Virus record (IMG/VR): IMGVR_UViG_2718218228_000004
Length of the DNA: 39,530 bases
Direction: 5' to 3' (one strand)
Source: a virus
Lineage: Duplodnaviria; Heunggongvirae; Uroviricota; Caudoviricetes
Position numbers: made by a program. This document shows, piece after piece, positions 9,001 through 12,000 of this stretch (positions are counted from its first letter, which is position 1; every line of letters begins with the position of its first letter).

Positions 9001-12000
9001 GCGATGAAGTGACTGGAAAAATGATAACGCGGGATAATCCACCAATCCCGGGAAAGCAATCGCTGGCGAAGGTGACGTCAATTCCTCTGGTCAGTCCGGT
9101 TGAGTTTTCGACATCATCGTGGCGGCGGGCTGTTCTGTCTCTTGAAGAACATCATAAAGCCTGGTTGTTGTGGTGTTACAGCGGGAGTATTTGTTGGGAA
9201 TATCAGATCGCGATAACACAGTGGGCGTGGAATGAATTTAATACTCAATCCGGTACCAGAAAAATTGCAGGGAAAACGCAGGAACGCCTGAAAAAATTAA
9301 TCTGGCTGGCGGCGCAGGCAGTAAAAGCAGAACTTTTTGGTGGGGAAGGTTATGAATACAAGGAGCTGGCATTACTGGTGGGAGTGACAACTAAAAACTG
9401 GTCCAAAACATTTACTCGTCACTGGGTTGCAATGAAACACATTTTTCACCGACTGGATAGTGAGGCTTTATTGTTTGTAATGAGAACGCGTTCAAAACAA
9501 AAGGCGGCATTTTCAAAGCAAAGTGTTGCAAAAGTAGATTGAAAGGCATATATTTCATGCAAATCTGATATTTTGCCGATTTTGTACGTGATGGCAAAAG
9601 CAAACAAAACCCGCCCACAAGCGGGTTTTTTTGTGCCACTTATCTCGGATAGACATGGTGAATGCGCTGGTGGAGGAAGCAAGGGTAATTTTTAACCAGG
9701 TGATTCTTGAATGCTTGCAACATTGATTTCGTAACGTTATTATCCTGCGCCCGGCCCTTTAGCTCAGTGGTGAGAGCGAGCGACTCATAATCGCCAGGCC
9801 GCTGGTTCAAATCCAGCAAGGGCCACCATCACATACCGCCATTAGCTCATCGGGATAGAACGCCAGCCTTCGAAGCTGGTTTCGCGGGGTTCGAGTCTCC
9901 GATGGCGGTCCATTATCGGTATTCTGCGTTTTTAGCTCAGCCGGACAGAGCAATTGCCTTCTAAGCAATCGGTCACTGGTTCGAACCCAGTACAACGCAC
10001 CACACTTATTTTCCCTCGCTCGCTTTTGCGGACCTTTTTTGTATCCGCACCACGCCCGGCGCATACCAACCACAGAGCCTTTCGGGGGGAGCTTATGGAG
10101 TGGTCAGTGTGACTTTCTCTGTGGGCAGATCGCTCCCGGGCGTTGGCTCACCCACCCAAAGGAACGTCACGATGTTTGGTATTTTTGGTAAAAAAAGCCC
10201 GCAGAGCGGCAACGGAAATTAAAAAGTTTGAAAAACGCGATCTGGCACAGGTGGTGATTAACGCCGCATACCTGGTGGCCTGTGCAGATGGTGAATGTGA
10301 GGCTTCCTAGAAAGCGAAGATCGAACAGGTACTGCGTAATCAGCCTGCGCTGTACGCGTTTACGTCAGAAATTAATGCGATTAGCGCAACCATTATCGGT
10401 CAGCTGGATACGAACTTTAAAACTGGTCGTCGTGCGGCGTTACGTGAGATCGAGGATGTGAAACACGATACGCGTGAAGCGGAAGATGTGCTGGATGTGG
10501 CGGTGGCCATTGCGGAGGCAGACGGCGAAATTGAGCCGGAAGAGCGCAAGGTGCTGGAAGAGATTGCCGGTGTTCTGGGTCTTCGTCTGGAGAATTACCT
10601 GTGACGGTAAAACTGCGCCTGACTGTGGCTGCACTCCTGCTGTTTCTGGTGGTGATGGTGGATTTCACCAGCAGAATCATGTCGGTGCTGGCGGATGGGG
10701 TGCTGGTCTGCGGCATTATGGTATTGCTGTGGCCGGTGATAAAAAGAAACAGCCTGCATAATGCTTGATTTTTTTGTTTGCTGTTTATTAAAAACACTTC
10801 TGCATGGTGAATCCCCCTGTGCGGTGGGGCAATCAGCAAGAAGGAATATGGGGTAATCGCGGATTCAGGTGCTGGTACTGAATTCACCGGGAGGCACCCG
10901 GCACCATGCTTTGCCACAAAAGTGTTATTTCTGTTTTTCTCAAACTATCATCGTTATCCCTTTATTTCCGGCTGCGCATGGCGCGGCCTTTTTTTTACGA
11001 CCAGCCACTGGCAGATGGTCATCCTGTGATTTGATTCCGATTCCGGCTTTTTAACTCTGTTCCTGTACACGGGAGAAATTCGATGTCGATTAAACATTAT
11101 GATGTTGTCAGGGCGGCGTCGCCGTCAGACCTTGCGGAAAAGCTGACACACAAACTGAAAGAGGGCTGGCAGCCATACGGCGGACCGGTTGCCATTACGC
11201 CGTACACACTGATGCAGGCGGTGGCTATTGAAGGAGAGCCACAGGTCGGCCCTTCATCTGAGCCGGATTGGTACTACGTCATCGTACTGGCCGGGCAGTC
11301 CAATGCCATGGCTTACGGTGAAGGGCTTCCGCTGCCGGATTCATACGATGCTCCGGATCCGCGCATTAAACAGCTGGCGCGCCGCAGTACAGTGACGCCG
11401 GGCGGGGCTGCCTGCAGATATAACGATATTATTCCGGCTGACCACTGTCTGCATGATGTGCAGGATATGAGTACGCTGAATCATCCGAGGGCTGACCTGA
11501 GCAAAGGGCAGTACGGCTGTGTCGGCCAGGGTTTACATATTGCCAAAAAACTGCTCCCGTATATCCCGAATAACGCGGGGATCCTGCTGGTACCATGCTG
11601 TCGTGGTGGTTCGGCATTTACCCAGGGCGCGGAGGGGACATTCAGCGAGTCCACGGGGGCCAGTCAGGATTCGGCACGCTGGGGGGTGGGCAAGCCGTTA
11701 TATCAGGATCTGATTTCCCGCACAAAAGCGGCATTGCAGAAAAATCCCAAAAACGTTCTGCTGGCCGTCTGCTGGATGCAGGGTGAGTTTGACATGAGCG
11801 CCGCCACCCACGCACAGCAACCTGCGCTGTTTACAGCCATGCTGACACAGTTTCGTGCTGACCTCTCCGTGTTTAACGCGCAGTGCCATGGTGGCAGCGC
11901 TGCAGATGTGCCGTGGATTTGTGGTGACACGACGTATTACTGGAAAAATACATACGCTACCCAGTACGACACCGTGTACGGCGGGTATAAAAACAGGGAG

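Follow-up and report, generated by a model that had tools for sequence, protein, structure and literature searches.

Three tRNA genes downstream of the Q gene in prophage Sp14

We analyzed the 39,530-nucleotide sequence of the IMG/VR virus record IMGVR_UViG_2718218228_000004 (Caudoviricetes), referred to as a whole as the window, with a focus on a cluster of three tRNA genes downstream of the late-gene antiterminator gene Q. Over the full 39.5 kb, ARAGORN identified exactly three tRNA genes, each of them on the + strand: ileZ, of the tRNA-Ile2 type with anticodon CAU (9753-9828), argN, a tRNA-Arg with anticodon UCG (9836-9912), and argO, a tRNA-Arg with anticodon UCU (AGA/AGG; 9926-10002). The Rfam tRNA covariance model, which has a gathering score of 29 bits, matched the three genes at 72.5 bits (E = 4e-14), 44.4 bits (E = 2e-6) and 63.3 bits (E = 1e-11), respectively. 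An earlier note on this DNA had proposed tRNAs with these anticodons, and the two programs recovered all three as stated. The genes are separated by spacers of 7 and 13 nt, each encodes its 3' CCA, and in the record of Escherichia coli O157:H7 strain Sakai they are named ileZ7, argN5 and argO7.

Bases 1-16184 of the window were 99.93% identical to prophage Sp14 of Sakai, with no difference across the Q-to-tRNA region (8801 to 10303), and over its first 31.1 kb the window matched the E. coli strain 350 chromosome (NZ_CP018243) at 100% identity. Bases 8800-11100 were near-identical in many O157:H7 genomes. By these matches, the window is prophage Sp14 (CP-933U) of E. coli O157:H7, an element annotated in Sakai as 'prophage Sp14, lambda-like phage', whose PerC-family gene is there called pchC.

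The lysidine synthetase TilS distinguishes tRNA-Ile2 from tRNA-Met by the acceptor pairs C4-G69 and C5-G68. The CAU tRNA of the window has both pairs as well as A73, like K-12 ileX, while metT has U4-A69 and A5-U68; across the whole gene, 67 of 76 bases (88%) were identical to ileX compared to 51 of 76 for metT/metU. Judged by these features, the CAU tRNA is of the ileX type and not a tRNA-Met, and it is predicted to read AUA once modified with lysidine. RefSeq labels the gene tRNA-Ile, and the 'tRNA-Met' label given by ARAGORN and in some phage records is a naming artefact, which in the case of ARAGORN arises because the anticodon is read literally. The main identity elements for arginyl-tRNA synthetase (ArgRS) are A20 and C35, and both can be read from the sequence of either Arg tRNA (D-loop GGA = G18, G19, A20). 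In argN, 96.5% of stem cells were paired across 26 variants. E. coli is not known to have a native tRNA-Arg(UCG), and the phage tRNA would be expected to decode CGA/CGG, perhaps more. Thermodynamic folding of the single tRNAs failed to reproduce the cloverleaf for argN and gave z = -1.2 for argN and argO; since modifications and tertiary contacts contribute to tRNA folding, we set aside these weak scores and took the covariance model as the proper test.

The earlier note had also placed the trio downstream of Q and directly after a Q-dependent terminator; the trio does lie after Q and after a strong terminator. The Q gene (8853-9542, + strand, locus ECs_2750 in Sakai) encodes a 229-aa protein that matches Pfam PF06323 (Phage_antiter_Q, E = 3.9e-91) and is named 'bacteriophage antitermination protein Q' in RefSeq. 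Overlapping its stop codon, a consensus scan found the sequence TTGCAA-17-TATATT (9526-9554, + strand), which is identical in other prophages carrying a PF06323-type Q and which, from its position, is a candidate for the late promoter pR'. An intrinsic terminator, the candidate tR' (9606-9632, + strand), begins 64 nt past the Q stop codon and consists of an A-tract, a stem-loop at 9610-9625 (stem CCCGC/GCGGG, 6-nt loop) and a run of seven T at 9626-9632. It folds at -16.6 kcal/mol (z = -3.7), more stably than any of 200 shuffled sequences. The promoter/terminator scan gave this hairpin on the - strand only; the T-run is on the + strand.

The hallmarks of a Q-dependent unit are thus present at the locus, namely a Q protein, a promoter adjoining its gene and an intrinsic terminator shortly 3', and the terminator is predicted to be one that Q overrides. 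The arrangement fits a pR'-tR' unit that would make a short terminated RNA of ~70 nt. Such a pR'-to-terminator transcript (predicted at 9556-9632, + strand) is the positional analogue of the lambda 6S RNA and of StxS from Shiga toxin (Stx) phages. Searched against Rfam, it gave only matches below the gathering scores (isrJ at 24.5 bits and isrK at 22.7 bits), and we set these assignments aside as sub-threshold and probably reflecting the terminator hairpin.

A conserved putative promoter precedes the cassette

The earlier note put the trio behind a promoter-like element of its own, and the start coordinate it gave, 9715, coincides with the opening T of a sigma-70-like sequence, TTGCAA-17-TATTAT (9715-9743, + strand), detected by consensus scan and supported by conservation. 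This candidate promoter begins 82 nt beyond the T-run of tR', and its -10 hexamer stops 9 nt short of the mature 5' end of ileZ, the intervening G+C-rich stretch being CCTGCGCCC. K-12 ileX is laid out alike, with a TATAAT that ends 10 nt before the tRNA.

To assess the element we relied on conservation analysis, and on folding for the terminator, in place of the promoter/terminator scan. Scanning IMG/VR with the ileZ anticodon arm returned 120 loci, and the 45 nt upstream of trio-type cassettes provided 18 distinct versions for comparison. The -10 hexamer was TATTAT in 17 of these versions and TATCAT in one, TTG occupied the -35 position in all 18, and the hexamers were 17 nt apart throughout, or near it in two TTGAT-type variants. 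In 16 versions the -10 hexamer ended 9 nt before the tRNA, with an indel offsetting the other two. The spacer and flanks varied, and mean information per column was 1.61 bits in the -10 hexamer and 1.46 bits in the TTG of the -35 element, compared to 1.03 bits in the spacer and 0.68 bits in the upstream flank. Positions 9713-9745, which hold both hexamers, were 100% identical to a Stx2a phage, though its Q, pR' and tR' are unrelated.

A differential RNA-seq (dRNA-seq) study describes, for prophage Sp5, a primary transcription start site (TSS) from which the homologous tRNAs appear to be transcribed (PMC7547250). The Sp5 sequence at the homologous place is TTGCAG-17-TATTAT-CCTGCGCCC, and this G+C-rich stretch resembles what is found at stable-RNA promoters. 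On the conservation pattern, a promoter of its own is well supported for the cassette family, and the Sp14 copy would be expected to share its activity. With such a conserved promoter, the tRNAs could act in uninduced lysogens.

The trio is a portable cassette of lambdoid prophages

The arrangement had been likened in the earlier note to the ileZ-argN-argO cluster of Stx phages, and the comparison upheld the likeness. Homology to Stx2 phages is limited to positions 9680-10045 (~365 nt), where identity is 91-93% and the matching genes carry the annotations ileZ, argN and argO; in a pairwise alignment with a Stx2a phage, sequence past about 10060 was unrelated, as were Q, pR' and tR'. The homologous block thus includes a conserved 3' tail (10003-10045, + strand), which extends to about 10045. 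Within that tail, a search for a terminator after argO found a weak hairpin plus T-run with z about -1, no better than shuffles. Compared with Stx2 phages (933W, Sakai Sp5 and Stx2a_WGPS6), the anticodons, order and strand are the same, the spacers are near-identical, and the promoter hexamers, their spacing and the discriminator agree. The slot is also alike, after Q and a terminator and ahead of cargo and a nanS-p-like esterase gene. By these correspondences, the Sp14 trio is a copy of the cassette known from Stx phages. It differs in that the upstream Q, pR' and tR' are unrelated (PF06323 in Sp14, PF06530 in Sp5), in that a TerB pseudogene and a DUF3927 gene take the place of stx2AB, and in that the Sp14 trio bears substitutions of its own, including two stem mispairs. 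As a side observation, argO2 of Sp5 (locus L127, 1341-1417) has G and not A at position 37, beside the anticodon (CUUCUGA), as does IMG/VR locus L101; this could change decoding because position 37 is normally a modified purine.

Other known tRNA genes are related more loosely. While ileZ is 88% identical to K-12 ileX with a similar promoter-to-tRNA distance, argO shares the UCU anticodon with K-12 argU but only 54 of 77 bases, and unlike the host genes ileX/ileY and argU, the phage genes form one clustered unit. The lambdoid phages SfI, Sf6, ST64T and P21 likewise carry tRNA genes in the slot right after Q, but these are Asn/Thr species of unrelated sequence. For the post-Q tRNAs of these phages, a supply of over-used codons has been proposed from ACA codon bias (PMC3636060).

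Across the 120 IMG/VR loci, the tRNA arrangement was CAU-UCG-UCU in 40, CAU-UCU in 16, CAU-UUU-UCU in two and CAU alone in 34, with various clusters in the rest. Upstream lay Q genes of families PF06323, PF06530 and PF03589, or a gene for a DUF1133 protein with a weak PF06530 match, which places the cassette, by these family assignments, behind at least three unrelated Q-antiterminator families. A gene for an N6-adenine methylase often ended 40-49 nt upstream of the cassette, and in some loci its place was taken by a gene for an AraC-type regulator or for a type I restriction-modification specificity subunit. Downstream we found intact TerB-like genes (at least eight loci), Stx2A (four loci), a holin gene or an esterase gene. 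Among 5,426 complete E. coli genomes, 3,056 matched positions 9713-10002, 2,579 of them with one place covering at least 80%; the maximum was 13 matching places per genome, and there were 6-10 in the O157 genomes listed. The cassette is therefore not special to Stx phages or to Sp14, given its spread over Q types, cargo and 3,056 of 5,426 genomes, and its distribution identifies it as a portable three-tRNA module of lambdoid prophages.

The three genes of the module differ in how far they vary. ileZ was nearly invariant, identical in 38 of 44 trios and differing in Sp14 at one variable-loop base, C47, and argO had a dominant consensus, with G6, common to 23 of the 44. argN was highly variable, with 29 distinct sequences among the same trios. 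In addition, the middle slot was degenerate in 16 of 58 cassettes (the CAU-UCU type), which kept an argN-derived acceptor stem around a deleted or scrambled interior; this lability was seen in loci L099, L118, L119, L120, L126 and others. Two cassettes had a UUU anticodon in the middle slot, and PPompW prophage records call that gene 'tRNA-Lys'. Given that the argN slot varies and decays, ileZ and argO seem to be under strong selection and argN under weaker selection.

The tRNAs match the codons over-used by the prophage

We compared codon usage in 45 annotated prophage genes of the window, with tccP as a separate group, to that in 64 core genes of the host, which comprise 25,673 codons and lie in two regions of the chromosome of the same strain. 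Jointly, ATA, CGA, CGG, AGA and AGG occurred at 40.0 per 1000 codons in the prophage compared to 11.4 in the host core (odds ratio 3.6, p = 3e-57). We also ranked the 59 degenerate codons by how much more the prophage (46 genes, now with tccP) uses each of them within its amino acid than the host does; the four most over-used were AGG, AGA, ATA and CGG, in that order. The tRNA set thus closely matches the largest gaps in codon usage. That phage tRNAs supply over-used codons is established general theory, cited in PMC7946995 and PMC3636060.

The earlier note had suggested that the late genes and adjacent cargo, including the repeat-rich effector gene tccP, depend on this supply. The 3.6-fold enrichment agrees with that idea in direction, but it is not specific to late genes or cargo: the five codons stood at 46.6 per 1000 in early genes, 40.5 in lysis genes, 37.5 in late (morphogenesis) genes and 41.5 in tccP, compared to the host core value given above. 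The enrichment is prophage-wide, with early genes at least as high as late ones, and individual genes ranged from 5 per 1000 in lom to 83 in espJ, just outside the window, and 125 in pchC. We rejected tccP as a special client. It lies on the opposite strand, past the tail fibers and outside the Q-dependent transcript, and its density equals the prophage average. Its 14 rare codons, moreover, include one AGA and one CGG per 47-aa repeat in five near-identical repeats, and these counts are not independent because each repeat contributes one of each.

A separate observation concerns pchC (18430-18744, + strand; PerC family, Pfam E = 2e-44), in which 13 of 104 codons are cognate to the tRNAs, the highest density in the window by far. 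Pch regulators activate the locus of enterocyte effacement (LEE), which would make pchC a more plausible tRNA client than tccP.

Function of the cassette and alternative explanations

We consider it probable that the trio is the Sp14 copy of a portable ileZ-argN-argO cassette that supplies tRNAs for rare codons, transcribed from its own promoter and additionally by Q-dependent read-through. This explanation builds on the genes themselves, their homology, the conservation pattern of the promoter and the match between tRNAs and codons, from which expression, modification, charging and an effect on translation are predicted for the Sp14 copy. The cassette has the late-control region (Q/pR'/tR') on one side and the cargo and lysis genes on the other. 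In the lysogen, the conserved sigma-70 promoter would produce the three tRNAs as one short precursor without Q, and RNase P and 3' trimming would release them with their CCA ends already encoded. On induction, Q-modified polymerase starting at pR' would read through tR' and add to tRNA transcription. The products would be a lysidine-type tRNA-Ile for AUA, a tRNA-Arg(UCU) for AGA/AGG and a tRNA-Arg(UCG) for CGA/CGG, adding to host species that are scarce or, for UCG, absent, and easing translation of horizontally acquired genes in which these codons are over-used. A comparable effect is familiar from the T4 tRNA cluster and from helper plasmids (argU, ileY etc.), in which tRNA-Ile(CAU, AUA) and tRNA-Arg(UCU) aid translation rich in AUA/AGA/AGG, although T4 is virulent and carries eight tRNAs in another genomic context, and the plasmids are engineered.

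Several results weigh against this explanation or narrow it. The promoter scan was by itself not significant, with three sites compared to 1.3 ± 1.4 in shuffles. Codon enrichment of this kind is general in horizontally acquired DNA and does not prove a need for the tRNAs. CGA was only weakly enriched (rank 13 of 59); since, in addition, 16 of 58 cassettes have a degenerate argN slot, the UCG tRNA may be of little importance. The discriminator of argN is U73, which is unusual for an E. coli tRNA-Arg. Covariation analysis of 26 distinct argN sequences found no compensatory changes, and shuffles scored as well; we regard this result as uninformative rather than negative because the copies are too similar. 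Finally, two substitutions disturb stems in the Sp14 copy itself: G24A in argN leaves a C11·A24 mispair in the D-stem, found in one of the 26 distinct argN sequences, and G6U in argO leaves a U6·C67 mispair in the acceptor stem, which is marked in the Rfam alignment. argO also has C60 and A73; among the copies compared, the mispair and C60 are unique to Sp14, and A73 occurs in one other copy.

These substitutions bear on the rival that deserves most weight, namely that the Sp14 trio is a relic, redundant and in slow decay, that contributes little or nothing while other copies supply the same tRNAs. Among 44 trios, Sp14-only substitutions occur in all three genes, with the stem mispairs in argN and argO. 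In the surrounding prophage, the integrase, terminase and J genes are frameshifted, the capsid gene is truncated, IS629 is present twice and TerB carries a nonsense mutation, and the O157 genomes listed have 6-10 matching places. Yet single stem mispairs are often tolerated in tRNAs, ileZ departs from the consensus in the variable loop only, all three genes score above the Rfam gathering threshold, and the promoter is intact, with hexamers and discriminator as in the Sp5 type for which the dRNA-seq study reports a TSS (PMC7547250). We find this rival plausible, if less probable than not, and compatible with codon supply as the explanation for the cassette family as a whole. Either way, the contribution of the Sp14 copy is probably small because the prophage is defective, the copy has two stem mispairs of its own and it is one of several in the genome; dependence on it is unlikely given the several matching places per O157 genome. 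That the tRNAs lack a promoter of their own, are made solely in the Q-dependent late transcript and stay silent in the lysogen seems very unlikely to us. Their placement after pR' and tR' in the same orientation would suit such a scheme, as would the lack of significance of the promoter-like match by scan alone, but the conservation of the promoter and the reported Sp5 TSS (PMC7547250) disfavor it.

Prophages often integrate into tRNA genes, and a 2026 preprint, which ties STnc100 and PasD to esterase genes, reads nearby tRNA matches as integration hot spots. Applied to Sp14, this would make the three sequences site-specific integration remnants or targets, that is, attachment-site debris and not expressed phage genes. 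The three genes, however, are full-length with CCA encoded and a conserved promoter, and they lie mid-prophage between Q and the lysis genes, while the real integration site is at serU, at the integrase end. Position and gene completeness exclude integration debris, and the tRNA matches beside prophage small RNAs (sRNAs) are here late-region cassette genes, not integration scars. A different kind of value, as a recombination anchor for swaps of cargo (stx, TerB and others) or through tRNAs that resist tRNA-cleaving defenses or colicins, would agree with a conserved block that has unrelated flanks on both sides and differing cargo behind it, with a discussion of recombination at the 'tRNA-triplet' (PMC9997748) and with a middle slot that switches anticodon (UUU) or decays in some cassettes. 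We obtained no direct support for these roles, including nuclease resistance, and recombination alone leaves unexplained why the tRNA set corresponds to the four most over-used codons; as the main value of the cassette they are unlikely, and they are compatible with codon supply. Equally doubtful, in our view, is a broader proposal in which a constitutive promoter of the stable-RNA type and copy number (up to 13 places) reshape the tRNA pool of the lysogen and so set the output of virulence regulators and effectors rich in AUA/AGA/AGG/CGG, rather than of late genes, with argN as an evolvable slot. Candidate clients would then be pchC (125 per 1000) and espJ (83 per 1000), and decay of the argN slot or its switch from UCG to UUU would possibly answer tRNA-targeting defenses.

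The codon-supply idea for Stx phages was proposed in the late 1990s. The trio itself has been named in the Sakai record for years, and both the cassette and its rationale are long established; a literature search by the gene names ileZ, argN and argO returned nothing relevant. As a discovery, the finding is ordinary and matters little. The minor points worth keeping are the codons ranked one to four, the conservation pattern of the promoter, the fact that the argN slot is labile, and the bases particular to the Sp14 copy, by which tRNA sequencing could separate it from the others.

Condition of the prophage and neighboring features

The prophage adjoins the host serU tRNA gene at its integrase end, with mtfA and yeeJ alongside, and its other end carries tccP (38517-39530, - strand), which encodes 337 aa and contains a 141-bp repeat in 5.3 copies; espJ and yodB lie beyond it. 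Its gene content marks Sp14 as defective. The genes for the terminase large subunit (19869-21855) and J (32547-36076) are frameshifted, the major capsid gene (25571-25834) is truncated and fused beside a tail gene, and the integrase gene, just beyond the window, is frameshifted in strain 350. The lysis region holds two IS629/IS1203 copies (13015-14228, - strand, and 16232-17445, + strand), both of which contain an ALIL frameshifting pseudoknot (Rfam, 121.5 bits); the second splits the lysis cassette, and neither Sakai Sp14 nor strain 7636 has it. In a prophage this defective, productive use of the late genes is unlikely.

Downstream of the tRNA cassette, a TerB-family gene and a DUF3927 gene identified by Pfam (10176-10768, + strand) occupy the slot that stx takes in Stx phages. 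The TerB-family gene (10176-10604, + strand) is a pseudogene here, labeled 'internal stop' in RefSeq and interrupted by a premature stop codon (TAG, 10308-10310); in Sakai, position 10308 is G and the gene, of 142 aa, is intact. Next come a strong match to the prophage sRNA STnc100 (10773-10945, + strand; 98.8 bits with a gathering score of 47 in Rfam) and, 3' of it, the gene for a nanS-p-like SASA esterase (11083-12933). The lysis genes include a holin gene at 14548.

Two minor observations lie outside these genes. Between the cassette tail and the TerB start, we noted by eye an 8-bp inverted repeat, CCACAGAG ... CTCTGTGG, with arms ~40 nt apart (10066-10135, + strand); this stretch is missing from the aligned Stx2 phage, and the repeat may form a regulatory hairpin. 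The early region contains a hok/sok-type toxin-antitoxin locus at 6663-6837 and 6832-6987 (+ strand), ahead of the genes for DUF968, rusA and Q, with an Rfam sok match of 114.9 bits and an annotated hokD.

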